IMG/VR virus record: IMGVR_UViG_3300006141_000006
DNA: 64,000 bases
Direction: 5' to 3' (one strand)
From: an uncultured virus (IMG/VR IMGVR_UViG_3300006141_000006)
Taxonomy: Duplodnaviria > Heunggongvirae > Uroviricota > Caudoviricetes
Shown one piece after another: positions 1 to 64,000 of this stretch. The translations under genes were made by a program, and so were the position numbers. Numbering within the stretch: position 1 is the first letter of the stretch; every line of letters begins with the position of its first letter. The notes below the pieces were generated by a model. It was not told the DNA's origin. It saw only the letters and a list, made by a program, of their open reading frames with translations, and ran no database searches.

Positions 1-82
1 CTGGCATGACACCAAGTTTGTTGCCCAGGGTCAGGCAGAGGCAGCATGGAATAAGCGACCGGGCCGGAGGGAAACGTTGTGA
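1..82 (+). CDS. 3' end of Lar-family restriction alleviation protein (partial)
   Basis: Frame 2 reads WHDTKFVAQGQAEAAWNKRPGRRETL*, same as the C-terminus of 43078-43296. Confidence 0.75.
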   Translation, partial: WHDTKFVAQGQAEAAWNKRPGRRETL

Positions 83-210
83 AGTACTGCTGCAATGAAT
101 GCAAAAACAAGGACTGCCCGGTCAACTACAAAAACGCGCCAAAGGGCGAACGGATTGAATTTGCCGCCCTTTGTGGCTCGAAACAATGCACGGGCTACAA
201 GCGCCCGTGA
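79..210 (+). CDS. Small Cys-rich hypothetical protein (43 aa)
   Basis: GTG overlapping the upstream TGA; MKYCCNECKNKDCP...; frame conserved in the copy at 43293-43424 despite substitutions. Confidence 0.65.
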   Translation: MKYCCNECKNKDCPVNYKNAPKGERIEFAALCGSKQCTGYKRP

Positions 211-228
211 GTCGATGGAGGAATCATC

Positions 229-774
229 ATGAGTTTATCAATCGATCTGCCCCAAACCTACACATTTTCCCTTTGCATCGACCGGGGAGGACACACCATT
301 GTTGACACAACGGTCGAAGTGCCGGACACCAGAGAGGGAATCGCCAGAGCAAAGAGGACCATCCAGCGTCTGATGAACGAATACGCCCCAATCCCCAAGA
401 CCCCGGAGCTGGTGGGACTGGACCTGGAGAGCCAGACCCCCACCGACCCGCCGCCGGCAGCGGAGACCGTACCTACCCCGCCCCCGGAGAAAAAGCCGGA
501 AGGGGCGCGGGGACTGCTTCGCCTCCACTGCCCGGAGTGCGGGAGCACCTTCGGGACATTCCTGCGGGAGTACCAAACGGAGATAGCGTGTAAGTGCGGC
601 CATCACATCGACCTCACGGGCCAGCTTGGTCGGTACCACGCCGTCTGCCCGTATTGCCAGCATGAGATCTGGGGCAAGACCAACAGCGAGGAACCAGTGG
701 TTGAAGTTCAGTGCAAGTGCAAAGAGATGATTCGGCTTCAGTGGGTACCGGAAGCCAGAGAATATCAGAACTGA
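229..774 (+). CDS. Hypothetical phage protein with Pro-rich linker and C-terminal Zn-ribbon repeats
   Basis: GGAGG RBS; CPEC, CKCG, CPYC, CKCK motifs. Confidence 0.75.
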   Translation: MSLSIDLPQTYTFSLCIDRGGHTIVDTTVEVPDTREGIARAKRTIQRLMNEYAPIPKTPELVGLDLESQTPTDPPPAAETVPTPPPEKKPEGARGLLRLHCPECGSTFGTFLREYQTEIACKCGHHIDLTGQLGRYHAVCPYCQHEIWGKTNSEEPVVEVQCKCKEMIRLQWVPEAREYQN

Positions 775-789
775 AGAAAGGCGAGGAGG

Positions 790-1071
790 TTGCCCAGAAT
801 GCCTAAGAAATACATCGACAGCCGCGGTTGGAAGTACCAGGTCATGCCTGGCCTTGGTGAGAACACCTTTAAGGCCCGGTACCAGCGGCCGGAGAAACAG
901 GGTGATGTCGGCTGGAAGGGGGTGGCCGCCGTCCCGTGGCGCGGAAGCCGTGAGGAAGCCCAGACCGACCTTGACCAGCTGGCCGAGAAGGACGGGATGC
1001 TGGTGGTGCTACCGCCCAACGCCCCTCTGCCCCTGGAGGATCTGCGGGAGATGGGAGGAAAATCCTATTAG
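790..1071 (+). CDS. Hypothetical phage early protein
   Basis: GAGGAGG RBS, co-oriented ORF. Confidence 0.65.
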   Translation: MPRMPKKYIDSRGWKYQVMPGLGENTFKARYQRPEKQGDVGWKGVAAVPWRGSREEAQTDLDQLAEKDGMLVVLPPNAPLPLEDLREMGGKSY

Positions 1072-1207
1072 CATGTTGGACTGCAAGAGGATAGTCCGCC
1101 GCCGCACTGGAATGTTCTTGACCCGTTCTATGCACAACATATCGAGGATTACGGATACGGGAAGCGGTGGCTGGCGTATCGCTATGAGCTGGAGGGAGGG
1201 GGAGGCT

Positions 1208-1660
1208 GTGGAGATTAAAACCTACCCGGAGATGAACAAAACCATCAAGGACTTGCTCAGGCGCAGCGAGGAGCCGATGAACCTTTACATCCTGGCCCGG
1301 ATTGAGGAACTGGAAAAGCAACTGGCGGAGGCCGTGGAAGACATCTGGAGGTATTCGACCGGGAACACTTGCCGCTCCTGCATCGAGTGGAAGGAGGGGC
1401 GGTGCTCCAGGCCGGGGCCGAAAGACTGCGGGGGTTATTCCTGGTGGAAGTGGAGGGGGTTCGGTGAAGATGATCCCCCGAGGGATCCCCGGAGCCGTTT
1501 CGAGCGGCTCAAGGCGTGCAGGACACCCACGGACATGGTACTGCTGCTGAATGGGAATGAGCGGCGGTTTTGTCCGAAAGCATACGGGGCCAAGCCTGAC
1601 AAGTGCGAGGAACCCTGTGGACGGTGCATTGTTCAATGGCTGGAGGAGATAGCGCAATGA
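1208..1660 (+). CDS. Hypothetical Cys-rich phage protein
   Basis: GTG after GGAGG; stop overlaps the next start (ATGA). Confidence 0.6.
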   Translation: MEIKTYPEMNKTIKDLLRRSEEPMNLYILARIEELEKQLAEAVEDIWRYSTGNTCRSCIEWKEGRCSRPGPKDCGGYSWWKWRGFGEDDPPRDPRSRFERLKACRTPTDMVLLLNGNERRFCPKAYGAKPDKCEEPCGRCIVQWLEEIAQ

Positions 1661-2097
1661 ACTGGAAACGAGAGGCAGTCGATAAGCTGAAAAACTATGA
1701 GGCCCACAAGCAAGCTCTGGAATGCCTGCCCAAAGAGATCAAGCGGTTGGAGAGTGCCTATACTGGCATTCGTAGCGCCACTACCGACGGCACGCCTGTT
1801 TCTGGCGGCGGCAACACTCGGGAGGACTCCATGCTCTCCAACATTGTTCACCGGGACGAGTTGAAGCGGCGGCTGAAGGAGGCCCGTCTGTGGGTGGCCC
1901 AGGTTGACAAGGCCCTGGCCGTCCTGGATGACGAGGAAAGGCTTGTTTTAGACCGGTTTTACATCCATCGGGCAAAGGGGGCTGTCGAGGCCTTGTGCGA
2001 GATCCTGGGCCTGGAGAAAAGCGCCGTCTATGACAGGCGGGACAAGGCTTTGCGGCATTTCACCCTGGCCCTTTATGGGGTCACTGAGACGGAGTAA
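1657..2097 (+). CDS. ArpU/RinA-like late transcriptional activator
   Basis: Coiled N-terminus plus sigma-4-like HTH (LDDEERLVLDRFY...SAVYDRRDKAL); immediately upstream of terminase genes. Confidence 0.8.
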   Translation: MNWKREAVDKLKNYEAHKQALECLPKEIKRLESAYTGIRSATTDGTPVSGGGNTREDSMLSNIVHRDELKRRLKEARLWVAQVDKALAVLDDEERLVLDRFYIHRAKGAVEALCEILGLEKSAVYDRRDKALRHFTLALYGVTETE

Positions 2098-43633: not shown

Positions 43634-43647
43634 GACGAGGAGAAGAT

Positions 43648-44807: not shown

Positions 44808-44816
44808 TAGCGGAAA

Positions 44817-46459: not shown

Positions 46460-46514
46460 TTTTCCGAGCAGAGCCGGATTTTTACAAGTATGACCCGAAG
46501 AGGGGGTAAGGAGT

Positions 46515-47433: not shown

Positions 47434-47437
47434 GAAG

Positions 47438-50356: not shown

Positions 50357-51937
50357 ATGCCGCGCTACCCCTTTACGCCGGAAATCCTGGACGCGCTCCC
50401 GGAGGAACTGGCCGAACTCTTTCGCGATCTGGAACGAAAGCTGCTGCAAGAAATCTGTTCCAGACTGAACGCGTCGGGACAGCTCAACGAGGTAACGGTG
50501 CAGAGCATTCGCGCCCTGCGCGCTCACGGCATTGACCTGAAAGAAATACGGCGGGCGATTGACGAGGCCACCGGCATTGGAGAGGCCCGGCTAAACGATC
50601 TTCTAAACGATGTTGTAGCCCGCAACCAGGCATATTATATGGAAATGATCGACTTGGCAAAGGTGACAGAGCCGGAAACACTCCTAAGCCATGAGGATAT
50701 TTGGGCAATCCAGGAACAGACCCGCGGAGAGCTGCGAAATCTGACGCGTTCTATGGGCTTTCTGGTGACGCAGGGCCGTCATAGGGTGATGCTGCCGCCT
50801 GCAAAAGCCTACCAGTGGGCTTTGGACAGCGCAGAGCTTCAGATTATGTCCGGGGCGATCAGTTACAATCAAGCCATTGCCGGCGCAGTACGGCATCTGG
50901 CGGAAAGCGGGTTCAAAACCGTCCGCTATGAGAGCGGGCACGTGGACAGCCTGGATGTCGCCGTCAGAAGGGCCGTTATGACGGGTGTGAATCAGATCAA
51001 CCAGAAATACCGCGAGCAATCCATGGACTACCTTGGTACAGATTTGGTGGAGGTTACGGCCCACCTGGGAGCGCGGAACATCGACGGCCCCAGGGGCTGG
51101 GAGAACCATGCCGCATGGCAGGGGAAGGTATACCATTGGGAAGCAAAATCCCGGGCATCCAAAGGGAAGTACCCAAGTTTTGAGGACGCCTGTGGTGTGG
51201 GAAGCGTTACCGGAATCGGAGGGGCCAACTGCCGCCACTCCTATTGGCCTTTCATCGAGGGCGTATCCGAGCGCACCTATACCGACGCGGAATTAGAAGC
51301 CATGAAGCCTGAGAACCGGCCCAAAATCCTGTTTGAGGGCCGGGAATATGACGATTACCAGGCCACGCAAAAACAACGGCAGATTGAGCGCGCCATCCGC
51401 AAGCAAAAACGGCTCAAAATGGCCTTTGAAGACGCCGGGCTGACCAATGAAGCGCAGTCCTCCGGTATCCGCCTGCGCCGCCTGAATGAAAAATACCGCC
51501 AGTTCAGCAGAGCGGCCGGACTGCCAAAGCAAAGAGAGCGGATGAAGGTTTCCTATGTGGATGAGGCTTCAAAAACGAGAGCATCGGCGTTGAGAATCCG
51601 AAGAATACGGGAAGCAATTCGTCGGGGCGATTATCCGCTCACCATCAACCCAGAAAAGCAAGCGCGGCACATGGCGGCAACTGCAATACCGGGGCGCAGC
51701 GTTATCACGATCCCACAGGAGGAATTGCAGAGGATCATCAATAAACAGGCCGGAAGTGGTCATATTGAACTTACACGCGGACTTGAATGGAAGAACAAGG
51801 AAATTGTTGATGTTGGGAAAGAAATTGGCTATACAGTAAACAAAAAAGGTGATATAATACCAGCGAGAAGTATTGCCATTCATTACAGCAAAACCGGCGT
51901 TCATGCTGTCCCAAATTCAAGGAGGTTGGAAAATTGA
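50357..51937 (+). CDS. Minor capsid (MuF-related) protein with C-terminal Ntox50-like toxin domain
   Basis: H.GAR, H..WQGKVY, GANCRH; tail INPEKQARH...GRS.IT...IHYSKTGVHAVP. Confidence 0.82.
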   Translation: MPRYPFTPEILDALPEELAELFRDLERKLLQEICSRLNASGQLNEVTVQSIRALRAHGIDLKEIRRAIDEATGIGEARLNDLLNDVVARNQAYYMEMIDLAKVTEPETLLSHEDIWAIQEQTRGELRNLTRSMGFLVTQGRHRVMLPPAKAYQWALDSAELQIMSGAISYNQAIAGAVRHLAESGFKTVRYESGHVDSLDVAVRRAVMTGVNQINQKYREQSMDYLGTDLVEVTAHLGARNIDGPRGWENHAAWQGKVYHWEAKSRASKGKYPSFEDACGVGSVTGIGGANCRHSYWPFIEGVSERTYTDAELEAMKPENRPKILFEGREYDDYQATQKQRQIERAIRKQKRLKMAFEDAGLTNEAQSSGIRLRRLNEKYRQFSRAAGLPKQRERMKVSYVDEASKTRASALRIRRIREAIRRGDYPLTINPEKQARHMAATAIPGRSVITIPQEELQRIINKQAGSGHIELTRGLEWKNKEIVDVGKEIGYTVNKKGDIIPARSIAIHYSKTGVHAVPNSRRLEN

Positions 51938-52158
51938 ATATCCCTGCTCCTGATATTTACTTTGGAAAAAGAATAAAAGTTTATTCTCCTGAAGGAGACG
52001 TTACAGTTGGAGATTTTTTCGGGTTTAGCTATGACTATGACGATGATGATAACGAAATCCTCGATTTTGACGTTATGCGGGAAGATGGTTTTTTGATTAG
52101 TTTTATAGAGGACGAGATTGAACGGATTGAAGTCATTGGAGATGTGAAAGATGCATAA
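51934..52158 (+). CDS. Small acidic candidate immunity protein
   Basis: Overlaps the toxin stop (TTGA), very D/E-rich, AT-rich. Confidence 0.7.
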   Translation: MNIPAPDIYFGKRIKVYSPEGDVTVGDFFGFSYDYDDDDNEILDFDVMREDGFLISFIEDEIERIEVIGDVKDA

Positions 52159-52336
52159 GAGTACCATAAATCCGGAAAGCTGGTATCGTTGCCAACACTG
52201 CGGAAAGGCCCTTTTCCCATTGCGAGAGGACACCCGCATTGAGCATATGCCGTTCCGATGCAAGGCGTGTAAGAATGACATTGAAGTGAACACATTCCCT
52301 ACAAAAATAAATAACCTAAGAGCCAAGAGCCTGTGA
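52151..52336 (+). CDS. Com-like zinc-ribbon regulator
   Basis: WYRCQHCGKAL...FRCKACK. Confidence 0.65.
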   Translation: MHKSTINPESWYRCQHCGKALFPLREDTRIEHMPFRCKACKNDIEVNTFPTKINNLRAKSL

Positions 52337-52392
52337 GCCAAGAGCCGTTAACCTGTCGGATATTCCGGCGGGCTGACGGCTCTTTATTTTTG
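52318..52392 (+). terminator. Four GAGCC repeats overlapping an intrinsic terminator
   Basis: AAGAGCC AAGAGCC TGTGAGCC AAGAGCC; stem AGAGCCGTTA...TGACGGCTCT then TTATTTTT. Confidence 0.75.
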
Positions 52393-52470
52393 ACCGGCCC
52401 GAAGTCGCAAAACTACGGGGCAGCGGTGGAGGCAACCCACGCGAAAAAAGCGAAGCTGCAAAGGAGAAGT

Positions 52471-53091
52471 ATGACACGGGAATTTTTGAAAACATTGGGC
52501 ATTGAGGACGCCGGCATTGACAAAATCCTGGATGAGAATATGCAGGACATCGGGAAAGAAAAACGAAAGACAGATGCGGCGGAAACGGCGCTGTCCACGG
52601 CGGAAACCGCGCTGTCCGCAGCGCAAGACGAGTTGGAGACGCTGAAAAAGGCGGGCAGCAATACCGCCGCTGTCCAGCAGCAGCTCGCCGACCTTCAGGC
52701 CAAGTATGACACAGATACCAACAGCTTACGCACGCAGCTGGCAGACCGGGACTATTCCGACGCCATCGCCCGCGCCATCGTCCGCAAGGCAATCAAGTTC
52801 AGCTCCAAAAGTGCGGAGCGGGCTTTTACCGCGGCCCTCAAGGAACAGAAGTTGGAATTGAAGGACGGTGAGCTGTCCGGCTTGGACGACTTCATCAAAG
52901 CCCAGCGGGAGGCAGACCCAGACGCTTTTGCGCCGGACAAACCCGCCGCGCGCTTTGTTACAGGCAGTGGAGGCGGGCACGGGGAGCCGCCCGAGAGCCT
53001 TCCGGAGAACGTGGTTCAGGCCAAAGAAATGGGCGCGGCGCGGGCTGCCGGTCGGAAAGCCTCTGCGGACATTATCAAAAATTATTTGTAA
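52471..53091 (+). CDS. Scaffolding protein (GP20-like)
   Basis: MTREFLK.LG N-terminus, coiled coil; AAGGAG RBS. Confidence 0.85.
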   Translation: MTREFLKTLGIEDAGIDKILDENMQDIGKEKRKTDAAETALSTAETALSAAQDELETLKKAGSNTAAVQQQLADLQAKYDTDTNSLRTQLADRDYSDAIARAIVRKAIKFSSKSAERAFTAALKEQKLELKDGELSGLDDFIKAQREADPDAFAPDKPAARFVTGSGGGHGEPPESLPENVVQAKEMGAARAAGRKASADIIKNYL

Positions 53092-53103
53092 AGGAGCGAA
53101 TTC

Positions 53104-53448
53104 ATGAAATTCAAAACGACTTCCATAGGCGGGACAGTTGAAATTCTTGCGGCGAACGATTTTGATGCAATCCCGTTCAGCGTGACCGAATCCAGTGTTG
53201 TCAAAGCAGGCACGCCCATGACGCTGGATGGCAGGAAAGCGGCGTCTGCCTCTGCGGACGGCATTCTGCTGTACGACGTGAACCCGGAGGAAAACCCAAA
53301 CGCCGCCCTGCTTGTGCGGGGTGTGATCGACCAGACAAAAGCGGAGGCCCATTCCGGCACGGCCTATGACGCCGCCGCGTTAAAAACAGCCGTTCCTGGA
53401 ATCGTCCTCCGAAATAATATCGGCGTAACTGCCGCTGATACAGAATAA
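53104..53448 (+). CDS. Head decoration protein
   Basis: VKAGTP, GILLYDV; precedes capsid. Confidence 0.75.
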   Translation: MKFKTTSIGGTVEILAANDFDAIPFSVTESSVVKAGTPMTLDGRKAASASADGILLYDVNPEENPNAALLVRGVIDQTKAEAHSGTAYDAAALKTAVPGIVLRNNIGVTAADTE

Positions 53449-53459
53449 GGAGGCTAATT

Positions 53460-54587
53460 ATGGATCTGAGAGAATTTTTTACTCCCGCAGCCATCGCCGC
53501 CCAATACAACGAGGCTGCCTCAAACAAAATCCCTTACCTGGGAACCGGCTTGTTTCCAGCGAAAAAAAAAGCAGGCTTGGACCTGAGCTGGCTGAAGGGT
53601 TCCAAGGGCTTGCCTGTATCCTTGATGCCCTCCGCTTTTGACGCGAAGGCCACCTTCCGGGACCGTATCGGCTTTGAAAAGCTGGAAACGGAAATGCCCT
53701 TCTTCCGCGAGGGTTTCAAGATCAAGGAAAAAGACCGGCAGGAATTGCTTCGGGTGCAGGACAGCAACGATCCTTACGCCCGCACTATGATTGACCGCGT
53801 TTTTGACGACGCCAACAACCTCATTGACGGCGCAAATGTAGTTCCCGAGCGCATGATTATGCAGCTGCTGTTCCCGGAGGACGGCGCTGCTGGGATCGCC
53901 ATTCAGGCAAATGGAATGGACTACACCTTTAATTACGACTTGGATGGAGGGTGGAAGAAGCACAACTACATGGCTTTGTCCGGCGGAGACCTATGGACGG
54001 CCAGCACGACCGCCGATCCTTTTCAGGTATTCAAAGCCGCAAAGGACCGCATCCGCAGCCGAACCGGCACAGAGCTGACGGTGGCAATCATGAACACCAC
54101 TACTTTCAATCTCCTGGCAGCGGCGGATGCTGTGAAAAAACGTTATCTGACGACCAGCGGGTTGACCTTGGGGTATCTCACGGACGACGAGGTAAAAAGC
54201 GTGGTCAGCGGAACATCCCGTATCCAGATTGCCATCTATGATAAACAGTATAAGGATGAAAGCGGAATTTCTCATTCCTTTGTCCCCGATGGCTATGTAG
54301 CGATGATCCCGACAGGGGACTTAGGCAGCACCTGGTACGGCACTACGCCGGAGGAAGCTGACCTGATGTCCTCCCCCAATGCAGAGGTGAGTATTGTCAA
54401 CACCGGCGTAGCGATCACGCGGGAGATTACTACGCACCCCGTCAACATCAATACATATGCCTCGGAGATCGTTTTGCCGTCCTTTGAGCGGATGGATGAG
54501 GTTGCGGTGATCAAAGTCACCGGCGGAGACAATGCAGCTGCTCAGAACAGCGAACCGCCTGTTCTGAAGGCCCGGAGCAAACAATAA
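53460..54587 (+). CDS. Major capsid protein (lambda gpE-like family)
   Basis: LFP, FDA....R, MPFF, G.TWYG.TPEE, VLPSF. Confidence 0.88.
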   Translation: MDLREFFTPAAIAAQYNEAASNKIPYLGTGLFPAKKKAGLDLSWLKGSKGLPVSLMPSAFDAKATFRDRIGFEKLETEMPFFREGFKIKEKDRQELLRVQDSNDPYARTMIDRVFDDANNLIDGANVVPERMIMQLLFPEDGAAGIAIQANGMDYTFNYDLDGGWKKHNYMALSGGDLWTASTTADPFQVFKAAKDRIRSRTGTELTVAIMNTTTFNLLAAADAVKKRYLTTSGLTLGYLTDDEVKSVVSGTSRIQIAIYDKQYKDESGISHSFVPDGYVAMIPTGDLGSTWYGTTPEEADLMSSPNAEVSIVNTGVAITREITTHPVNINTYASEIVLPSFERMDEVAVIKVTGGDNAAAQNSEPPVLKARSKQ

Positions 54588-54605
54588 AAGAAGGTTGATT
54601 GCCAA

Positions 54606-55028
54606 ATGGCTTATGCAGACTATGACTTTTACCGGAACGTGTATTGGGGAAACGCCATTTTTGAGGAAGACTTTCTCAGGCTTTCTGAACAGGCTTCCGA
54701 CTATATCAGGGCAGCCACAAGCGGCATCTCCGACCACGTAGACGGCGGACCGCTTGAGGCAGTGAAAAAATGTACCTGCGCCGTTGCAGACGTACTCTTG
54801 GACGAGAGTATCATAACCGCCAACGCGTTCAGCGGAGAACAGGCGGTTTCCAGTGAAACGGTAGGCGGATGGTCCAAAAGCTACCGGGTAGCGTCCATCT
54901 CCGCTGCGGAGACAGCGTATTTAAGCAGCCGTAAACAAGATGCATTGCGGCTGTACCTAGAAACGCTTCCGGCCTTTGCGCCGGTTTTCAAAGTAAGGAG
55001 TTTTTCATGCTTTCACCGCGCCGAATGA
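54606..55028 (+). CDS. Head-tail connector
   Basis: MAYADY.FY...Y.G, SETVG.WS.SY. Confidence 0.8.
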   Translation: MAYADYDFYRNVYWGNAIFEEDFLRLSEQASDYIRAATSGISDHVDGGPLEAVKKCTCAVADVLLDESIITANAFSGEQAVSSETVGGWSKSYRVASISAAETAYLSSRKQDALRLYLETLPAFAPVFKVRSFSCFHRAE

Positions 55029-55501
55029 ACGCACCGCGTCGGAAGGGCCAATCATACGGCGGCATGTTCCCACACACGGTCACCCTTTATAACGTCTCCA
55101 TCGAAGAAGATAAGGATTACAACGAGACGTTTATTAACCACATCACAATCCTGCGGGGCGTCCTGCTGGACGCCTCCAAGGCCGTCAATGTCCGCAGCAG
55201 CGGACTTGAGGGCGCGGATGCCGTAAATCTATACATCCCATTTTCTGTGGAGGCGGTAGACGGTATAACCGGGGAACCGAAACGTTATACCGGTCCGTTG
55301 GAGTTCTGGCGGAGAGCGGATAAATCTGAACTCTGGACGCTCTCCGACGGCGGAAATACCTTTTTCATCAAAGGCGAAGCCGTGGAACCAACCGCCACCG
55401 TGGAACTGATCGAAATGAAATATGACGGCGTGTATAACGTCACGAAGATCGACGAAAAGGATTTCGGAAACCTGAAACATTGGGAAGTGGGTGGTAATTG
55501 A
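55007..55501 (+). CDS. Head closure protein
   Basis: TVTLYN, terminal HWEVGG; start uncertain. Confidence 0.7.
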   Translation: MLSPRRMNAPRRKGQSYGGMFPHTVTLYNVSIEEDKDYNETFINHITILRGVLLDASKAVNVRSSGLEGADAVNLYIPFSVEAVDGITGEPKRYTGPLEFWRRADKSELWTLSDGGNTFFIKGEAVEPTATVELIEMKYDGVYNVTKIDEKDFGNLKHWEVGGN

Positions 55502-55915
55502 GTGAAGTTGAGGTTTGATATTACCATCAGAGGCATGGACCTACTTGGACGAAGAATGGCGCACGCCTCAAAAGAGGCAAAGCACGCTATGGCGGTCCAG
55601 GCAGCCAAAGATACCGAACCCTTTGTGCCTGCAAGGACAAAATCGCTGGCAAACCGAACAAAAGTCATAGATGATACCATTATTTATCCCGGCCCCTCTG
55701 CACACTATCTTTACATCGGGAAACTTTTCGTAGACCCGAATACCGGAAGCGCGTGGGCTCCGAGCGGCGCAACAAAAGTTATCACAGGAACTAATTTGCA
55801 ATACAGCAAATCCGTTCACAAAAAAGCCCAAGATCATTGGTTTGAGGCGTCCAAGGCGCAAAATATCGAGAAATGGATACGAGTTGCAGGAAGGGCTATT
55901 CAGCATGAGTTCTGA
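55502..55915 (+). CDS. Neck/minor capsid protein
   Basis: PFVP..T..L, A..HWFE motif. Confidence 0.75.
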   Translation: MKLRFDITIRGMDLLGRRMAHASKEAKHAMAVQAAKDTEPFVPARTKSLANRTKVIDDTIIYPGPSAHYLYIGKLFVDPNTGSAWAPSGATKVITGTNLQYSKSVHKKAQDHWFEASKAQNIEKWIRVAGRAIQHEF

Positions 55916-56366
55916 TAACAAACCTATTCAACTGGTAACACGGGAGGAGGAAGATAAAGTCTCCCGGAATCTGTTGAAATTTTTGAACACTTTCCCGGAT
56001 ATCCCGCCTTCCGTAGACGCAATCAAATACGAATTTTTACGGGATGACATTCCTGGTATGGCGCTTTCCACCGTTCAGGGGACATACATAGCCGAACGGA
56101 ATATTATTGGCGGGTATACGGCGGAATACCAATTCAAAATTATCTATCGTATGAAACCGGGCGACAGCATGGACAAGCGGTTAAAAGCAGATGAGCTTTT
56201 GAACCGCCTTGGAGACTGGGCATCCGGACAGACGCCGGATATCGGAGAGGGATTGTCCGTACAAACACTTGAACCGACGACCCGTTCTTCCTTATATGGG
56301 ATGTTTGAGAACGGCGACGAAGATCATCAAATATTTATGAGGCTTTTGTATGATGTAAAGCCTTAG
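55905..56366 (+). CDS. Tail terminator-like protein
   Basis: Synteny before major tail protein. Confidence 0.7.
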   Translation: MSSDNKPIQLVTREEEDKVSRNLLKFLNTFPDIPPSVDAIKYEFLRDDIPGMALSTVQGTYIAERNIIGGYTAEYQFKIIYRMKPGDSMDKRLKADELLNRLGDWASGQTPDIGEGLSVQTLEPTTRSSLYGMFENGDEDHQIFMRLLYDVKP

Positions 56367-56380
56367 AAAGTGAGGAAACT

Positions 56381-56890
56381 ATGGCCGAAAAAAGAAGCAC
56401 ATTTGCTCTTTTCATTGACACAACGCCGAAAGAAACAACGGCAGATTACGCACTTGTCGGAGATGGCGTAACAGAACTTTCGATCTCGTACAACCCGCAA
56501 ACCAATACCGAACAGTATATTCACCAGGACACGGCCAACACGGAGTTGACCGGATATCAGCCCAACGCCCCCGTTACCGCACAGGTTATCAAAGGCGATA
56601 AGGCGTTTGAGTACATCAATGATCTTCGCAACCGGCTCCCGATTGGCAGCGATGCACACACAAATATTATTATGATTGATAAGTTTGAACCGGACAGCAA
56701 CGGGGCTTATCCAGCCACAAAACAGCCGGTTTCCATCCAAATTGACAGCTACGGTGGCGCGGCTTCCGACCCGCTGTCCATCGGATACACCATCAACTGG
56801 CGCGGAAGCGGAACAACCGGAACCTTTAACCCGTCGGACCGCACGTTCACCGAGGGGGCGGCAGCAGCGTATAGAGAGGATGAGATTTAA
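56381..56890 (+). CDS. Major tail tube protein (siphovirus)
   Basis: L....NP.T..EQYI motif; no sheath gene. Confidence 0.82.
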   Translation: MAEKRSTFALFIDTTPKETTADYALVGDGVTELSISYNPQTNTEQYIHQDTANTELTGYQPNAPVTAQVIKGDKAFEYINDLRNRLPIGSDAHTNIIMIDKFEPDSNGAYPATKQPVSIQIDSYGGAASDPLSIGYTINWRGSGTTGTFNPSDRTFTEGAAAAYREDEI

Positions 56891-56892
56891 GA

Positions 56893-57321
56893 ATGGATAG
56901 AATTCGCGTCAACACAGGCGAAAAGAAAATCGAAGTGAATGACAACGGCGACTTTATTACCATCAATTTCAGCGACCACGATTTCCCATCCCGTTTCTTT
57001 GCAATGCTTGATCATGTAGAGCTTTTGGCAAAGGAAGCGGAACCAAAAGAAAAAGAAATCCGCGCCAATTTTGCGGACGACAATAATGGCCTTATTCGCG
57101 CCTTATCCGACCTGGACAAGGATATCCACCGGTCTATTATGGCGGAAGTTGATTCCCTGTTCGGAGACGGGACCTGCCAGAAAGTATTTGGGGATATTAT
57201 CCCTGGAATCGAATTGTATGACGACTTTTTCAATCAGCTTCTTCCGTATATCCAGCAGTTTGGAGAAGAACGGGCAAAGCGTATGAGCAAATACCGCGCC
57301 AGCCGAACCGGCAATGTATAA
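56893..57321 (+). CDS. Tail assembly chaperone
   Basis: D.LFG.GT..KVFG motif; synteny. Confidence 0.75.
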   Translation: MDRIRVNTGEKKIEVNDNGDFITINFSDHDFPSRFFAMLDHVELLAKEAEPKEKEIRANFADDNNGLIRALSDLDKDIHRSIMAEVDSLFGDGTCQKVFGDIIPGIELYDDFFNQLLPYIQQFGEERAKRMSKYRASRTGNV

Positions 57322-57862
57322 CGCCATTTTAGACCGTCTGCCGGAGGATTACAACGGCTGGTTAATTCGCACAGATTACCGAATTGGCGTGCAAATCCAG
57401 CTCTGCCTCTCAGATTTGGACTTGTCTCCCGGTGAAAAAACGGCGGCGGCATTGTCGCTGCTGTATGGTAAAGGGATCCCAGATTTGGAAACGGCTCTGG
57501 AAGGGCTTTCCTGGTTTATGTCCTGCGGACACCCGGAGGAAGCCGCCGGAGATGACGGGGGCCCGGAAATCTATTCGTTTGAATACGATTCCGCCCGCAT
57601 TGTATCGGCATTCTGGAAAACGTTTGGATTGGATATCAGCCGCGAGAAACTGCATTGGTTTCAATTCGTCCCAATGATTGGTGACTTGGCAGACACGGCT
57701 TTTACAAGTGTAATTGATATCCGGACAACCGAACTAGCGGAAATTGATAAAAAGAAGCGTTCGGAATTTATCCGCATGAAAAAAAGGTTTGCTCTGCCAG
57801 AATTGTATACGCCGGAACAAGAATCCGCAATCAACGATTTTATGGACCGGCTGAAACAATAA
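57314..57862 (+). CDS. Gp15-like tail assembly protein
   Basis: I.TDYR, FE.D...I.SAF...G.D....LHW.QF. Confidence 0.82.
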   Translation: MYNAILDRLPEDYNGWLIRTDYRIGVQIQLCLSDLDLSPGEKTAAALSLLYGKGIPDLETALEGLSWFMSCGHPEEAAGDDGGPEIYSFEYDSARIVSAFWKTFGLDISREKLHWFQFVPMIGDLADTAFTSVIDIRTTELAEIDKKKRSEFIRMKKRFALPELYTPEQESAINDFMDRLKQ

Positions 57863-57880
57863 AACCGCGTAATGCGGCAT

Positions 57881-57920
57881 TGCACCTTGACAACTTCATA
57901 GAGATAGCGGAAATTTTGAT
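57881..57920 (+). promoter_or_regulatory. boxA-like motif fused to left arm of 30-nt inverted repeat (candidate antiterminator)
   Basis: TGCACCTTGACAAC overlapping CAACTTCATAGAGATAGCGGAAATTTTGAT (57891-57920), complementary to 59974-60003. Confidence 0.75.
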
Positions 57921-57926
57921 AATGAA

Positions 57927-57953
57927 ACCGCCCACTTAAAAATTGTGGGCGGT
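57927..57953 (-). terminator. Hairpin terminator for the minus-strand moron ORF
   Basis: ACCGCCCAC...GTGGGCGGT 9-bp stem. Confidence 0.7.
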
Positions 57954-57960
57954 GTATGTA

Positions 57961-58209
57961 TTACGGCAAGAACCAATTATGACCGCACGATTGGCAAAGG
58001 CACATCTTTTTCATAATTGTTTTCGTTTTTTCCTCGCCCTTGGCTTTTTTCCACACAAGATTTGACATTCCGAACGTCATCATAGCAGTTGTAGTTCTCA
58101 TGGAATTGTTAATATGTCCACCAAGCCCAATGCCTGTCTTCTTGGTCTTACTGCCAACTTCCTCCATGGAAATCGTCACATTTGTGCTTCTGCATTTGGG
58201 ACAAGTCAT
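57961..58209 (-). CDS. Moron: split Zn-ribbon protein with central hydrophobic segment
   Basis: MTCPKC...CQSCG; AAGGAGG RBS; own promoter TGGACA-17-TATTTT near 58235-58262. Confidence 0.7.
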   Translation of the reverse strand: MTCPKCRSTNVTISMEEVGSKTKKTGIGLGGHINNSMRTTTAMMTFGMSNLVWKKAKGEEKTKTIMKKMCLCQSCGHNWFLP

Positions 58210-58292
58210 TTCAAGCGCCTCCTTTCTTTTTTTAAAATACCACAAAATCCTCCGCGTGTCCACAAAAACAGAAAATTTTTCTAAATTCCCTC

Positions 58293-58334
58293 TTGACAAA
58301 CGTATCCACAATATTGTATTATAAATGTGGATAC
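58293..58334 (+). promoter_or_regulatory. Moron promoter with GTATCCACA/TGTGGATAC inverted operator
   Basis: TTGACA(58293)-18-TATTAT(58317); half-sites 58302-58310 and 58326-58334. Confidence 0.72.
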
Positions 58335-58353
58335 AAAAGAAGGAGGTGAAATT

Positions 58354-58524
58354 GTGCCCCCAAAAGGTAGGCCGACGGACGACCCTAAAACGCTAAGCAC
58401 TCGGATTAGACTGTCAGAAGAAGACATTCAGCGGCTTGAATTTTGTGTGCAAGCTACCGGCATGAAAAAGTCTGAAATTATCCGGCTTGGTATTAAGGAA
58501 GTCTACGAAAGGCTAAAAAAGTGA
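58354..58524 (+). CDS. Ribbon-helix-helix (Arc/CopG-like) autoregulator
   Basis: KGRPTDDPK...RIRLSEE...SEIIR.GI; AAGGAGGTG RBS. Confidence 0.8.
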   Translation: MPPKGRPTDDPKTLSTRIRLSEEDIQRLEFCVQATGMKKSEIIRLGIKEVYERLKK

Positions 58525-58621
58525 AGTAGCCCGACACCGTGGAAAGTTCCGGACTACTTCATTGACCCTCACCCGGAGGCGAGGCTAAATCTATTATAGC
58601 CCGCCTCCTGGTGAAAATCAA
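58516..58621 (-). ncRNA. Putative ~70-nt antisense RNA (sar-like) with its promoter
   Basis: Minus-strand TTGATT(58621-58616)-17-TATAAT(58598-58593); hairpin GAAGTAG...CTACTTC with T-run on the minus strand. Confidence 0.55.
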
Positions 58622-58631
58622 GGAGGAATTT

Positions 58632-58835
58632 ATGAGCGAAATTGAGAAGATGAAAAAGTACATCGAGCGGACGAAGCTCGACAAGTACAGGTATTGCCTT
58701 AGTATGGCAGAGGGGTTTTCTCTGGCGCATATGGCGCGTGAGACGAACGACTTCCCTTTTGAAGTGGTAACCCTTGCTTTCAACTATGGCAAGGCCAAAG
58801 GCTACCGGGCGGCGAAAGCGGAGGCGCGGAAATGA
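58632..58835 (+). CDS. Small hypothetical protein
   Basis: AAGGAGG RBS; AF.YG.AKGYRA motif. Confidence 0.72.
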   Translation: MSEIEKMKKYIERTKLDKYRYCLSMAEGFSLAHMARETNDFPFEVVTLAFNYGKAKGYRAAKAEARK

Positions 58836-59035
58836 AAAATCTCATTATCCCCTCCGGGAATCTGGAAAACATCACGGGACGGATGGTTTACCTCCATGCT
58901 CTTCTTGAAACCGTCTGCATGGCAATGAGTGATGATAAGATGTCCGATTCCCTTTCCGGTGTCATTGACCTTCTGCGGTCTATCCAGAATGACTTTGAAG
59001 CTGATATCGCCGCCGCTAAGGAGGTGACCACGTGA
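58832..59035 (+). CDS. Small hypothetical protein
   Basis: ATGA coupling, GGAGG RBS. Confidence 0.65.
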   Translation: MKNLIIPSGNLENITGRMVYLHALLETVCMAMSDDKMSDSLSGVIDLLRSIQNDFEADIAAAKEVTT

Positions 59036-59793
59036 ACGAACTCCAAGTCTTCAACTACGAGTCCAACGAGGTCCGTACCGTCATGATTGATGGTGAACCC
59101 TGGTTCGTCTTAAAGGACGTGTGTCAGGTGTTGGGGATTTCTAAGTACCGTGATGTCGCGTCTCGTTTGGACGATGATGAAAGGGGGCTGTTCAAGATGG
59201 ACACCCTTGGTGGGCTTCAGGAAATGACCATTATCAATGAGTCTGGCCTGTACTCCGTCATTCTCCGTTCGGACAAGCCGGAAGCAAAGCCGTTCCGCAA
59301 GTGGGTGACTTCCAAGGTCCTGCCCAGTATCCGGAAGACCGGCGAGTATAGCACCAGCAAGACCATACAGGACACCACGAAAGCATCCCTTGCTGAGGCT
59401 AGGCTGTTGAACAGTCAGGCACGGGAGCGGAACAGCCGGGTAAAGGAAGCGTCTATGTGGCTTGAGATTGCAAAAGTTGCGTCCGTACCGTCTTACTTTG
59501 CGATTTGCGCCCACTATGCAAGCACCGCACTGGCCGGGAAGGAAGTGCTTCCCTTGCCGGAGACTGGCGGACGTACTTATACCGCAAAGGAAGTCGGAGA
59601 AATTCTTGGCGGTATCAGCGCGAACAAGATTGGCAGGCTGGCTAACAAAAACGACTTGAAAACGCCGGAGTATGGTGTGGAGGTCTGGGATAAGTCCCCT
59701 CACAGCGGAAAACAGATTCCCTCTTGGCGTTACAATGAAAAGGGTGTTGAACGCCTGCGGCAGATTGTGGAGGCCCCGAATGAAACTGTTTGA
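59032..59793 (+). CDS. BRO-N family antirepressor
   Basis: VRTV..DGEPWFV.KDVC, INESGLY.VI.RS.KPEAK.FRKWVT..VLPSIRKTG.Y. Confidence 0.9.
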   Translation: MNELQVFNYESNEVRTVMIDGEPWFVLKDVCQVLGISKYRDVASRLDDDERGLFKMDTLGGLQEMTIINESGLYSVILRSDKPEAKPFRKWVTSKVLPSIRKTGEYSTSKTIQDTTKASLAEARLLNSQARERNSRVKEASMWLEIAKVASVPSYFAICAHYASTALAGKEVLPLPETGGRTYTAKEVGEILGGISANKIGRLANKNDLKTPEYGVEVWDKSPHSGKQIPSWRYNEKGVERLRQIVEAPNETV

Positions 59794-59941
59794 ACTTACG
59801 TATGACGGGGAACGGCTGACCATCCACCGGGAAGCAGAAGAACGCTTGACTGGTGAACAAAAGTACAGCCTTATTCAGACTGCCATTATTGCCGCAGCCG
59901 TTTGTGTCGTGGTGGCAGTAGTCTTCTCCGTGTTCCGGTAG
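59780..59941 (+). CDS. Small membrane protein
   Basis: GGAGG RBS; C-terminal TM helix. Confidence 0.6.
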   Translation: MKLFELTYDGERLTIHREAEERLTGEQKYSLIQTAIIAAAVCVVVAVVFSVFR

Positions 59942-59973
59942 AAGCAAAGTGAATTAAAAATCAAACTGAATAC

Positions 59974-60030
59974 ATCAAAGTTCCCGCTATCTCTATGAAG
60001 TTGAGACGGCGGGAACTTTTGGTTTCTAAT
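59974..60030 (+). terminator. Moron terminator whose 5' arm and loop are the right arm of the inverted repeat
   Basis: AAAGTTCCCGC-TA-TCTC-loop-GAGA-CG-GCGGGAACTTT then T-rich tract. Confidence 0.78.
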
Positions 60031-60053
60031 TTTTCAAGAAAGGCGGTGATATT

Positions 60054-63000
60054 TTGGCGGCTGGTTATGATGGCTCTATCAGAATCAAAGCATTATTGAA
60101 TCATGACCAATTCGACAGAGGCATTCAGGCCATGAATGATTCCGCAGATGACCTCAAAGACACGCTTGTAGAAGTTGCAAATGTTGTTGGAATTGCTTTT
60201 GGAATTGCAGCTATTGTAAATTTTGGGAAGGAAAGTGTCAATGCTGCATCTGCCTTAAGTAGTGCATTACTGGGATTACAAAGTATTGTTGAAGGGCAAG
60301 GTCAAAGTTTTAGAAAGGCTAATGCCTTTGTAGACGAATATATTTCTGATGGGCTTGTACCTCTGACAGATGCCGTAAAAGCATATAAAAATCTTGCCGC
60401 TAGAGGATATGATGACGAGCAAATCAAAAAAGTAATGATTGCTTTGAAAGATGCGGCGGCGTTTGGAAGACAATCTTCTTATTCTTTGGGTGAAGCGGTA
60501 TCCACGGCTGCGGAAGGCTTAAAAAACGAAAATTCTATTCTTGTTGATAATGCGGGTGTTACCAAAAACGTTGCAAAAATGTGGGACGATTATGCAAAAA
60601 GTATCGGAACCACGGCAAACAATTTGACGCAGGAGCAAAAGATTCAAGCCGAAGTCAACGGAATATTGGAAGAAACGCGATTTCAAGCCGGTGATGCGGC
60701 AAAACTGGTAAATACATATTCCGGCCAAGTGGCTATGCTGGGATTCAACTTCCAGCAGCTTAAAGTCCAGATCGGAAACGCCATTATGCCGGTTGTGCAG
60801 GCCGTTCTGCCGGGTATCAACGCAATTATCGCCGCCCTGCTGAAGCTGGCGAAGGTCTTTGCCAAGGTGACGGCGCTGCTGTTTGGAAAAGCAAATGCCG
60901 GAACCGTCGGGCAAGTTTCTGCCAATGAGGAAATTACATCCAGCGGACTTGCTGCGGCGGATGCAACGGACAAACTGGCAGACTCCACCGCAGGAGCCGG
61001 AAGCGCGTCTAAAAAAGCCGCAAAGGATATGAAAGGTATTCTTGCTGGGTTTGATGAACTGAACATCCTGGCAGATAAAGCGTCCGGCAGCTTGAGCGGT
61101 GCGGCTGGCGGTATTGGGGCGGGCGAAATTGACGCCGATATTCCAGAATTTGATATAGGCAATGATGCCGCAGAAGATGCAGAGGAGGCATTCAAATCCC
61201 TCGGGGAGATTTTCAAGGATACCCTAGGCTCTATGCTGACAGGAATTACCCGGCTGAAAGAGGTCTTCCTTGACTTTGCAGAGAGTTTCAATAATTTTAA
61301 CCAAACGCTCTACGATGCATTCAAATTCGACGGCGTATTAGAACGTGTGGAATGGCTGGGGCGGCGGTTGGCTGATGCATTCAACGCCCTCGTAAACGCC
61401 ATTGACTGGCAACTATGGGGGCAACGCCTGGGAGCTGGGCTGAATCTGGGCTTGCAGTTCCTGACGGAATTTATTTACACCTTCGACTGGATAAACCTCG
61501 GGAAGAAGCTGGCGGAGTTTATCAACGGCTTGGTTTACGAGGTCGACTGGTATGACTTTGGCCGGCTGCTGTGGGCCAAGTTCAAGATCGGCCTTGAAAC
61601 CTTTGCGGGGTTCCTCACAGGGTTGGATATGCCAGCTCTGGCGAAAGCAGCCAGCAGCATCATTATGGGATTCTTCGATGAAATGAAGAATACGATTGCT
61701 AAAATTGACTGGGCGGAAATTGGCCGTCAAGTTGCCCGTTTTTTATCCAATATTGATTGGATGGGTATGCTGGCTTCTGCTTTGGGCGCGATCAAAGCAG
61801 CCGTTCTGGCCGGATTTGATTTCCTGGTGGGCGTGATTGAGCAAGGAAGCCCTGGGCTTCTTGCCGCTGTTTCCCTTGTTGCCGGAGCAATGGGTGTGAA
61901 ATTTGCCACGGATGTTGTACCCAAAATAGTGAATATCGCCAATGCTTTCCAATCTTTTTTCAAAAAGATAAAAGATATTTCCGTGCTTTTAAAGTATGAA
62001 ATGGCTAATCTTTCCGGCGCAATCAACGCGGTATTCGGGCCTGGGTCTACGCTTGCCGGAATTGCAATGGTTGTTGGAGGAGCAGTCCTTGCTTTTACGA
62101 ATTTCTTCTCCATGCTCCAAAACGGATTCAGCTTGGCGAACGAAGTGCTCATGCTTCTGGGCATTGCCATTACGGCTTTGGGCGCAATCATTCTTGGCGT
62201 ATCTACGCCGGTTGCCGCAGCAATCGCTGGAATCGTAGCTGTGGCGGGTACGCTTGCGGCGGTGTTCCCAGACGTGGTAGCAGCGGTAATTACAAGCTGG
62301 GATACCTTGCGCCAAACTTTTGTGGATTCCTTACAACCGATTGTTGATGTTGTCAGTTCCATCCAAACATCTATTCAAGAATGGTTTGATCAGATGCGCG
62401 CCGGATGGGAAAACTACATTCAACCAGTGCTTCAGAATATTATTGATAAATTTAACGAGGTAGTACAACAGCACATTGCCCCGCTGATCGAGCAAATCCT
62501 GAAGCTCATTGGTAATATTTCAGAAGTTGTAAAAATTCTTTGGGAAACTATCTTATCTCCTTTTGTATCGTGGCTTATTGGGGTTATGGGACCCAAAATC
62601 GGTGCAACATTGGAATTTATTGGTAGTGTTTTTCTTACTACCATTGGCGTTATAAGCGACCTGATTACGGGTCTCCTGCAAACATTGAATGGCCTTATCA
62701 AATTTTTAACTGGTGTTTTCACAGGCGATTGGGAAAAGGCTTTCAACGGAATACGAAATACTGTCGACGGTGCAATAACATTTGTTTCTGGCATAATCGA
62801 CGGCTTCGTTGAAAATCTAAAAAGTGCAGTTAATTGGTTGAAAAATTTCCTAGGATTATCGAATGAAACCGCAAGAGTAAAATCACCAAGCGGATACAAC
62901 ACAATTCATAAGTATTCACAAGTTTATACCATTGGACGGGCAGAAAATGTTCTTAAATCTGCACCCCTGCCCCGTCTTGCCAACGGCGCAGTAATCCCAC

Positions 63001-63251
63001 CCAATCAGCAATTTGCTGCGATTTTGGGTGATCAGCGAAAAGGGTACAACATCGAAGCTCCTGCGGACCTTATTTACCAAATGGTCGCAAAAGGTATTCG
63101 GGATTCCGGCGCGGCCTTGAACGGCGGCGGAAACCGCCCCATTACCGTTATTCTGCAAGTAGACCGCCGGGAGCTTGGCCGCGTTGTTTATGAAGTGAAC
63201 ACCCAGGAAACACAGCGCGTCGGCGTTCGGCTGGCAAGGGGGACAACATGA
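60054..63251 (+). CDS. Tape measure protein (phage B)
   Basis: DGSIRI N-terminus, DW/IDW helical repeats, PRLANGAVIP C-terminal motif. Confidence 0.9.
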   Translation: MAAGYDGSIRIKALLNHDQFDRGIQAMNDSADDLKDTLVEVANVVGIAFGIAAIVNFGKESVNAASALSSALLGLQSIVEGQGQSFRKANAFVDEYISDGLVPLTDAVKAYKNLAARGYDDEQIKKVMIALKDAAAFGRQSSYSLGEAVSTAAEGLKNENSILVDNAGVTKNVAKMWDDYAKSIGTTANNLTQEQKIQAEVNGILEETRFQAGDAAKLVNTYSGQVAMLGFNFQQLKVQIGNAIMPVVQAVLPGINAIIAALLKLAKVFAKVTALLFGKANAGTVGQVSANEEITSSGLAAADATDKLADSTAGAGSASKKAAKDMKGILAGFDELNILADKASGSLSGAAGGIGAGEIDADIPEFDIGNDAAEDAEEAFKSLGEIFKDTLGSMLTGITRLKEVFLDFAESFNNFNQTLYDAFKFDGVLERVEWLGRRLADAFNALVNAIDWQLWGQRLGAGLNLGLQFLTEFIYTFDWINLGKKLAEFINGLVYEVDWYDFGRLLWAKFKIGLETFAGFLTGLDMPALAKAASSIIMGFFDEMKNTIAKIDWAEIGRQVARFLSNIDWMGMLASALGAIKAAVLAGFDFLVGVIEQGSPGLLAAVSLVAGAMGVKFATDVVPKIVNIANAFQSFFKKIKDISVLLKYEMANLSGAINAVFGPGSTLAGIAMVVGGAVLAFTNFFSMLQNGFSLANEVLMLLGIAITALGAIILGVSTPVAAAIAGIVAVAGTLAAVFPDVVAAVITSWDTLRQTFVDSLQPIVDVVSSIQTSIQEWFDQMRAGWENYIQPVLQNIIDKFNEVVQQHIAPLIEQILKLIGNISEVVKILWETILSPFVSWLIGVMGPKIGATLEFIGSVFLTTIGVISDLITGLLQTLNGLIKFLTGVFTGDWEKAFNGIRNTVDGAITFVSGIIDGFVENLKSAVNWLKNFLGLSNETARVKSPSGYNTIHKYSQVYTIGRAENVLKSAPLPRLANGAVIPPNQQFAAILGDQRKGYNIEAPADLIYQMVAKGIRDSGAALNGGGNRPITVILQVDRRELGRVVYEVNTQETQRVGVRLARGTT

Positions 63252-63643
63252 ATCTTCCTGTATTCACCGTTGACGGCACAGAGTATCCCAACGTGAACGT
63301 TTTGAGCTTGAAACGATCCTTTTCGGTCCTGGACGGTCCAAACGCCGGGCGGGTTATGGACGGCTCCATGCAGCGGGACATCATCGGTACTTATTATAAT
63401 TACACGCTGGAAATCGCATCCGATTACAGCGACCCGGAGGAATACGACCGGCTGTATGAGGTGATTTCCGCCCCGCAAAACAGCCATACCCTCATCATTC
63501 CATACGCACAGGGAACCCTTACCTTTCAGGCATATGTCGCAAACGGCGAAGATTCGCTTTTTCATATCTATGACGGCCTGAACAAGTGGGACGGCCTGTC
63601 CATCAACTTCATTGCCATGAAGCCGCAGAGGAAGCCAGCATGA
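63248..63643 (+). CDS. Distal tail (Dit-like) protein
   Basis: After TMP; AGR..DG.M.RDIIG. Confidence 0.72.
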   Translation: MNLPVFTVDGTEYPNVNVLSLKRSFSVLDGPNAGRVMDGSMQRDIIGTYYNYTLEIASDYSDPEEYDRLYEVISAPQNSHTLIIPYAQGTLTFQAYVANGEDSLFHIYDGLNKWDGLSINFIAMKPQRKPA

Positions 63644-64000
63644 GTGTTCGTATCGAGTATCAAGATATTGCCGCAGGCGCGGCGGAAGACGCCGGTATTT
63701 CCACGCAGGACGCGCAGTCCTTCAGTCAACCGGCCATGCTTCCTTTTCCGACAGACCTGCCGCCGCTGGCGTCGTTGGAACCGAATGGCTGGATTCTCGA
63801 CGGTTCCCGTGAAATCATAGACGGGCAGCCCGCCCGCTTTTGGTCAGCGGCCATGAGCGGGTCAGACGGCGCGTTTGAGGCCCCGCCGGAAATCACCATC
63901 GTTTTCCGCGCGCGGTACACGTCTCCGGGAATCTTTCTGCGGTTCGACCCCGCGTCCGGCGAATACTGCCCCCGTGTCACCATCCAATGGCGGCGCGGCA
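63640..64000 (+). CDS. Tail tip protein, 5' part (runs off the window)
   Basis: ATGA overlap; open frame MSVRIEYQDIAAGAAEDA... to window end. Confidence 0.7.
   Translation, partial: MSVRIEYQDIAAGAAEDAGISTQDAQSFSQPAMLPFPTDLPPLASLEPNGWILDGSREIIDGQPARFWSAAMSGSDGAFEAPPEITIVFRARYTSPGIFLRFDPASGEYCPRVTIQWRRG

Follow-up and report, generated by a model that had tools for sequence, protein, structure and literature searches.

A possible tandem double lysogen at tRNA-Thr(GGT) with two virion modules in mouse-gut Oscillospiraceae phage DNA

Interchangeable modules are the classical picture of temperate phages. In mosaic lambdoid phages, early, late and integration modules interchange at gene boundaries and a given kind of early region can be coupled to more than one tail type, while homoimmune tandem lysogens of phage lambda can resolve by homologous recombination. 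Here, we describe a stretch of 64,000 nucleotides from an uncultured tailed phage (IMG/VR record IMGVR_UViG_3300006141_000006; source habitat, mouse gut, bacterial DNA), referred to below as the window, in which a contractile-tail and a sheath-less virion module lie on either side of a single attachment (att) core derived from a tRNA-Thr(GGT) gene. Unlike the lambdoid phages and the lambda double lysogens, the window comes from mouse-gut Oscillospiraceae, carries other genes and is known from sequence alone. Throughout, phage A denotes the late half left of the att core and phage B the part to its right.

A tandem arrangement has been described in Mycobacterium abscessus, where the prophages prophiT36-2a and prophiT36-2b occupy one attB and each excise on their own (PMC9934374). 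With respect to the parts of that report describing the array, the likeness consists of two different prophages at one attB, shared similar segments, a hybrid attR/attL between them and release via this middle site (PMC9934374). However, the same parts describe an array closed by sequencing, with attP products obtained by polymerase chain reaction and an att site in a repressor gene, not a tRNA, whereas the ends of the arrangement discussed here are unseen and it is read from one contig (PMC9934374).

For the replication genes, a relative is the Flavonifractor phage Castelnaud (ON453903), which the part of its report concerned with its origin gives as an induced prophage of F. plautii YL31 (PMC10197239). 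Its replication module resembles that of the window at the amino acid level (SbcC-like protein, 69%; helicase, 82%; primase, 71%; RusA, 84%; Sak4-like protein, 57% over 239 aligned of 372 residues) and at the nucleotide level (74.6% over 23% of the 25000-45000 query, about 4.6 kb), and it likewise has an ImmA-type immunity region and a tyrosine integrase. However, this integrase is only 29% identical, the long-tail virion module of Castelnaud matches no A or B protein, and it has no match to the cassette of a Lar-like gene and a small Cys-rich open reading frame (ORF) on which much of the following turns. For the integration region, the relative is the IMG/VR provirus G402 (37.1 kb, rated 100% complete), which has the tRNA-Thr(GGT), an identical 45-bp core, an integrase of 79% amino acid identity and the same arm motif; its contractile-tail module is of the A type (amino acid identity of the major head, 70%, and of the sheath, 53%). 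It differs in being a single prophage with a mostly unrelated early region, in which only 2 early-type ORFs match (41-57%). The window belongs to known kinds, namely tRNA-targeting mosaic temperate phages and possibly a tandem lysogen. Mosaic phages and polylysogeny being well known, it adds detail on this host group rather than a new principle.

To annotate the window, 96 ORFs were scanned against PHROG and 20 against Pfam, and tRNA genes were searched for with ARAGORN. The features that define the arrangement are the following.

1-82 (gene bases 2-82), plus strand: 3' end of a Lar-like restriction-alleviation gene, copy A (last 26 codons), identified via the full copy ending at 43296
79-210, plus strand: Cys-rich ORF of 43 amino acids, copy A, without Pfam or PHROG family
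2030-22861, plus strand: virion module A with contractile tail (terS, terL, portal, protease, major head, sheath, tube, XkdN-like, tape measure, baseplate and fibre genes, from PHROGs)
25039-25069, no single strand: arm-type motif TTAGCGTCCA on the lysis side of the core, three copies, two direct and one inverted
25175-25219, plus strand: att core of 45 bp, identical to tRNA-Thr(GGT) over its 3' part (anticodon loop to CCA), with the tRNA 5' half absent
25288-25308, plus strand: arm-type motif TTAGCGTCCA on the integrase side of the core, two direct copies
25356-26828, minus strand: tyrosine integrase of 490 amino acids (phrog_1; Pfam Phage_integrase, 1e-21, 77.9 bits with a cut-off of 27.1, plus a SAM-like N-domain)
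43078-43424, plus strand: copy B of the Lar-like gene (to 43296; Pfam Lar_restr_allev, 1.4e-7) and of the Cys-rich ORF (43293-43424)
46633-64000, plus strand: virion module B, sheath-less and running off the window (terS 46633, terL 47629, portal 48920, minor head, scaffold, major head 53460, connectors, major tail 56381, Ant/repressor-like insert 58040-59793, tape measure 60054-63251 and two distal tail genes)

An earlier note, made by a model from the letters of the window, had claimed that 1-211 matches 43215-43425 at about 92%. Indeed, the two copies were found to be 92% identical (92.4% in one alignment), which corresponds to 16 mismatches in 211 positions. All 16 fall in 78-211, and the copies 1-77 and 43215-43291 are exactly equal. 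On account of these mismatches, one circular genome that simply wraps onto itself was rejected. The similarity stops at 211/43425, one base past the TGA of the 43-amino-acid Cys-rich ORF, and the PHROG map confirmed that copy A then leads to a sheath-containing virion module and copy B to a sheath-less one. No sheath family was detected by PHROG within 46.6-64 kb, and the uncultivated viral genome (UViG) G454, a relative, also has no sheath gene downstream. Two further claims of the note were borne out. The unit 1-43214 has the full gene set of a complete genome of about 43 kb by PHROG and Pfam, with packaging, head, tail, lysis, att, integrase, immunity and replication genes, and late B, judged by eye to be less GC-rich than the early genes, has a GC content of 0.507 versus 0.574 for the early region (late A, 0.594; integrase/repressor, 0.579; pre-late B, 0.550).

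The assignment of the core to tRNA-Thr(GGT), also proposed in the note, is in good agreement with the relatives: the core is identical at 45/45 nucleotides to the 3' end of tRNA-Thr(GGT) in G402 and in the genome contig G172:C7. A 32-nt core pattern returned 1 match in the window (0 expected), as anticipated for a single core between the two modules. An intact tRNA inside the window was rejected by ARAGORN, which found none, and an Rfam scan of 24-29 kb gave sub-threshold chance matches only; lysis-side phage DNA stands in place of the tRNA 5' half. The 10-nt motif TTAGCGTCCA has 8 near-matches in the 64 kb, 5 of which cluster within 25039-25308, and an 18-mer containing it occurs twice (0 expected). 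Furthermore, the right-hand copies are found at the same place in relatives (two near-identical copies in G402, one in G172:C7), and the left-hand cluster is kept in G407, a relative of 41.9 kb. Since phage DNA and the same arm motif flank the core on both sides, the junction at 25.2 kb is attP-like, as the note had suggested, with putative arms of one integrase family on either side.

The stop codon of the integrase lies 137 bp from the core, and the protein is 100% identical to that of the UViG L025 and 79% identical to that of the provirus G402. In both G402 and G172:C7 (about 86% nucleotide identity across core, arm and integrase end), an intact tRNA-Thr(GGT) directly abuts a homologous integrase, which is the layout predicted in the note for the unseen left end; in G402, a cluster of four further tRNAs lies beyond. 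On this comparison, the integrase family inserts at the 3' 45 nucleotides of tRNA-Thr(GGT). Loose contig ends at 25175 and 25220-25224 in two public runs place the same core in other contexts: on one side they end in what looks, from the letters, like the anticodon-stem part of the tRNA 5' half, and on the other in different right-hand flanks. In G407, the left arm and core of this site are likewise present, but the gene after them encodes another tyrosine recombinase and the arm motif is missing there; stacked elements at tRNA-Thr therefore occur elsewhere.

The best explanation that we can offer for the window is that it covers the right-hand 25 kb of a temperate phage A, a hybrid att site and the left-hand 38.7 kb of a phage B, that is, a tandem (head-to-tail) double lysogen at tRNA-Thr(GGT), a proposal to which we give an even chance. 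Within the window, we see the late half of A and the left 38.7 kb of B, and the homology seen for the early region of A amounts to 211 bp. With its arm motif on either side of the core, the middle junction means that a single type of integrase would serve A and B. An independent IMG/VR contig, L025, repeats the order of late A, core, integrase and ImmA (99.3-99.7% identity), and the joint between Cys ORF (B) and the next B genes is bridged by a contig from run X15 (42986-43989, 1 difference) and is found at 90% in L022. Parts of the layout are also supported by the loose ends at the core, by the stacking in G407, by the coupling of this replication-module type to a B-type virion module on the contig G450:C28 and by the presence of both an A-type and a B-type prophage in the genome G450, and the tandem prophages of M. 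abscessus are a precedent.

Such an array could have arisen by integration of the second phage into the resident phage's attL or attR or, alternatively, by its recombination into this resident through shared early DNA. The integrase could then excise A, using attL and the middle site, or B, using the middle site and attR. In addition, if the early regions are alike, host homologous recombination between them would free a circle of 43.2 kb containing late A, att, integrase and early genes, which corresponds to the unit 1-43214, and would leave behind a single prophage with module B. The release of hybrids by recombination between the shared regions, as proposed in the note, is plausible, but its second route, excision at different att pairs, would by itself yield parental phages only.

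Several observations weigh against a double lysogen, and many of them bear on another explanation, according to which the contig order is an assembly walk through two phages and not one molecule. We regard this as a serious possibility, although not the one we would choose. A 43.2-kb phage X (late A, attP, integrase and early genes) would form a cycle in the assembly graph, and a phage Y would share the Lar/Cys-ORF cassette; the contig would begin at the last shared 77-mer, circle X once and exit into module B of Y. Phage Y would possibly have its own integrase and early genes, and X and Y could share a cell, each at its own site, or occupy separate cells. Indeed, the window starts exactly on the 77-nt exact repeat (1-77 = 43215-43291), with the first difference at base 78, which is the pattern seen when a short-read contig begins at a branching k-mer; a k of 77 is the usual largest value in SPAdes. 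The complete gene set of 1-43214 and the joint recurrence of late A, att, integrase and ImmA in L025 also fit a circular phage X. However, a tandem array with near-identical early regions would yield the same graph and the same contig, so that the 77-mer does not discriminate. Moreover, the contig crosses from the lysis arm over the core into the integrase arm, as does L025, and because at k = 77 the reads must span the 45-bp core, this junction is probably real DNA.

The ends of the window are likewise unfavorable to an array. Both outer ends, the left one of A and the right one of B, lie outside the window, and no bacterial (housekeeping) gene was found in its 64 kb on the PHROG/ORF map. The last 1,025 bases (62976-64000) are 96% identical to G454, which continues with tail genes, a holin, an endolysin, a serine integrase and a CI-like repressor. 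The tRNA-Thr core is absent from the 20.2 kb of G454, a counter-hint to the third core that the note had predicted after the lysis genes of B, and this B-type tail end coupled to a serine integrase has a GC content of 0.45-0.55, near that of late B (0.507), as would be expected of a separate phage Y. However, G454 differs from the window upstream of 62976 and is therefore a mosaic relative and not phage Y itself.

No independent near-identical sequence was found that joins the early region of the window to module B, and in two samples (G407 and L224) a 98%-identical early region runs into A-type pre-late genes. The X15 contig that bridges 42986-43989 has 3,622 further bases off the aligned stretch, the near-identical B start being preceded there by unlike DNA, and a contig from run X3 breaks at the same base 42986. 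The correlation of tetranucleotide usage is 0.61 between early region and late B versus 0.87 between early region and late A. Finally, the Lar gene matches that of an unrelated prophage in the metagenome-assembled genome (MAG) contig G001:C37 at 100% across about 256 nt, and for this reason represents a ready-made merge point in an assembly graph. Against the joining of two phages by the assembler stands the natural occurrence of prophages combining this early type with a B-type module (G450:C28).

The search for near-identical sequence gave the following results. An exact 60-mer of 1-60 had no match in viral contigs and one MAG contig match in genome contigs, and an exact 35-mer of 229-263 had no match in viral contigs; in the viral, genome and metagenome contig collections scanned, no match was to the source of the window itself. 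Against GenBank phages, 1-25000 had no match and 25000-45000 matched Castelnaud and one 5-kb fragment, nothing else. Among 401 family genomes, 316 were matched by 24001-44000, with the listed matches mostly to the tRNA core and no near-identical prophage, and 2 were matched by 44001-64000 at E <= 1e-150, both at no more than 86% identity. Of 49 genus genomes, 16 matched G454, none of them near-identical. Contigs of run X1 are identical to the window over 25474-36351 (4 pieces) and also cover the end of late A; X1 is nearly uncovered at 44044-44700 and uncovered at 25276, which we counted neither for nor against either explanation. Among the public-run contig pieces listed, none spans the whole 20-kb stretch.

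At the population level, the combination of related early genes with unrelated virion modules is well supported by these sequence comparisons, and here the module-exchange claim of the note stood: the same replication genes were found with several virion types in independent sequences. In the contig G450:C28, from the same genus as G001, the replication-module type of the window precedes a B-type virion module (helicase, 96.6%; RusA, 90%; portal, 63%; major head, 78%; B virion proteins, 62-81% amino acid identity). The drop in GC content from early region to B-type module is smaller there than in the window (0.569 to 0.537). The same genome holds an A-type prophage on a separate contig, G450:C30. 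A third partner is found in G407, which is 98.4% identical to 37225-43061 (helicase, 100% amino acid identity), continues with A-type pre-late genes and then carries a virion module unlike A or B, with baseplate genes, a PAAR protein and a reverse transcriptase beside the fibre gene, before ending in A-like lysis genes, the same left arm and the core; the window segment 24053-25225 matches this end in separate blocks at 77-91%. The reverse transcriptase (L128, 10672-15418; phrog_1423, 1.3e-70), located just downstream of an 823-amino-acid tail-fibre gene, probably belongs to a diversity-generating retroelement. L224, from another sample, is 98.8% identical to G407 and has the same third type. 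Castelnaud has a fourth. In G001:C37, the boundary genes alone, and not the replication module, precede a fifth virion type (lambda-like head, P2-like contractile tail) in a prophage with a serine integrase. Conversely, A-type modules occur with other backbones: in G402, with the same integrase family and a different early region, and in G420:C52, beside tRNA-Leu, with an integrase only 25% identical.

Mosaic breaks, where near-identical DNA meets unrelated DNA at a gene boundary, lie after the Cys ORF stop, past the late activator near 2150, at 43061 and at 46405. The Cys-rich ORF is conserved in 10 metagenome contigs and several viral contigs. In the 10 short metagenome contigs recovered with a degenerate Cys-ORF motif, an orf42536-like gene lies upstream in 8 and Lar in 5; an orf229-like gene follows the Cys ORF in 3 and B-type small genes in 1, B-type small genes being elsewhere located upstream. 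L019 is 99.1% identical to copy B of the cassette, yet continues into the A-type orf229. The version of the Cys ORF (A- or B-like) was rejected as a pointer to the late-module partner and is unusable for pairing early and late regions because relatives carry every combination. Downstream of copy A, 1208-2151 is 94.6-98.2% identical in G407 and 92.1-98.2% in L224, and the late activator is nearly the same in G407 (1 difference in about 440 nt), with divergence right after TACAAT near 2150. The true left edge of module A thus lies near 2150, and that of module B near 46405. UViGs L047-L049 and L052 are 96-99% identical over the aligning parts of 46405-52696, unlike the window upstream of it, and all are without about 46986-47376. 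In L048, L049 and L052, this segment of the 266-amino-acid terS ORF is absent or replaced, and only the first 118 residues match. Judged from these relatives, the conserved Lar/Cys-ORF cassette at the early/late boundary, whose end forms the 211-bp repeat, is a recurrent mosaic joint in mouse-gut Oscillospiraceae phages, and the Cys-ORF divergence point is only one of many such joints.

Module A needs to be considered separately, since it could be a defective tail or particle element of the PBSX kind rather than part of a second complete phage, with prophage B next to it as the single functional one. The genes of module A and those adjoining it are arranged as follows.

229-2097, plus strand: pre-late genes of phage A (orf229-774, orf854-1660 and a late transcriptional activator, 1603-2097, phrog_36/248)
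2030, 2652, 3841 and 8959: starts of terS, terL, portal and major head
12283-13632, 13647, 14133, 14702, 17470-21321 and 21323: sheath, tube, XkdN-like gene, tape measure, baseplate genes and fibre
22911-25169, plus strand: lysis region and small ORFs of phage A (holin-like 23288-23545; Peptidase_C39_2 protein 23478-24311; lysis genes to about 24.3 kb)

The contractile-tail families phrog_279, 365, 6 and 120 are present, and the PHROG matches include sheath phrog_279 (7.5e-118) and tape measure phrog_1068 (7.6e-159). The XkdN-like gene (phrog_389) and the presence of A-type DNA in 11/49 genus genomes (E <= 1e-80) would be compatible with a defective element. However, an early/late phage cassette and a late activator lie ahead of the module, lysis genes and the arm-motif cluster beside the core come after it, all of its ORFs are open in the frames used, and the provirus G402, rated 100% complete, combines a module of this type with an integrase of the same family at tRNA-Thr. 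We thus regard a defective module A as highly improbable. Within the tail-fibre gene, 21728-22150 contains seven 75-nt units with in-register 42/87-nt spacing, encoding peptide repeats of the HAEG..TTASG type.

The rest of the window harbors the immunity and early genes and the genes between the cassette and module B.

26884-27826, minus strand: ImmA-like metalloprotease (26884-27342; Peptidase_M78, 2.7e-16) and XRE-type repressor (27350-27826; HTH_31/HTH_3 below cut-off); phrog_87 and phrog_8
28015-43081, plus strand: early region (by PHROG, Cro-like regulator, primase-like 28817, SbcC-like 33893, HNH 35843 and Sak4 36382)
Right part of the early region, to 43081, plus strand: helicase 38125, primase 39711, iteron-like repeats 41926-42065, RusA 42223 and orf42536-43081
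43400-46459, plus strand: pre-late genes before module B (small ORFs; PAPS-reductase-like 44817-45701, PAPS_reduct 7.7e-24; radical-SAM-like 45623-46459)

A near-perfect inverted repeat at 27340-27388 (GCGGTTTAC ... GTAAACCGC) spans the boundary between the ImmA and repressor genes, and Rfam returned chance miRNA-like matches to it on both strands. The gap between primase and RusA (41926-42173) contains direct repeats of 34-36 nt (GAGAAAAA..TTTCCCT type) in four copies, after which comes an inverted repeat of 27 nt, and these repeats look like replication-origin iterons. The Radical_SAM match in 45623-46459 scored 29.0 bits, just below the cut-off of 29.5. The slot just before terS varies among the relatives (window, 44817-46459; L127, 7322-9208; L011, 10326-11201): it holds PAPS-reductase-like and radical-SAM-like genes here, ParB/methyltransferase-like and queuine tRNA-ribosyltransferase-like genes in G407, and a PAPS-reductase-like gene in G001:C37. 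Judging from these DNA-modification-like genes and the adjoining Lar, it may be an anti-restriction slot. Module B contains phrog_3099/820 and 1535 (major tail protein, tape measure). Its insert at 58040-59793, between the tail-chaperone region and the tape measure, comprises small genes including a repressor-like one (phrog_876) and an Ant anti-repressor (phrog_130, 1.4e-63).

A broader proposal is that tRNA-Thr(GGT) in mouse-gut Oscillospiraceae serves as an exchange hub, where one integrase/replication backbone would acquire, one in place of another, at least four unrelated virion modules, contractile and non-contractile, the homoimmune tandem array being the intermediate that releases a viable 43.2-kb phage of the other morphotype. 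We put this forward tentatively and consider it rather unlikely in this full form. If two phages were fused by the assembler, the window would be a warning that conserved phage cassettes can join two phages into an apparent tandem prophage. If the double lysogen is real, it would represent a concrete case of temperate phages of hard-to-culture gut Firmicutes swapping whole virion modules, and with them the host-recognition machinery, while keeping integration, immunity and replication, and the joints of this exchange could be named as the Lar/Cys-ORF cassette, the late-activator promoter and the att core. Overall, the two-tail layout is an ordinary outcome of viral module shuffling.

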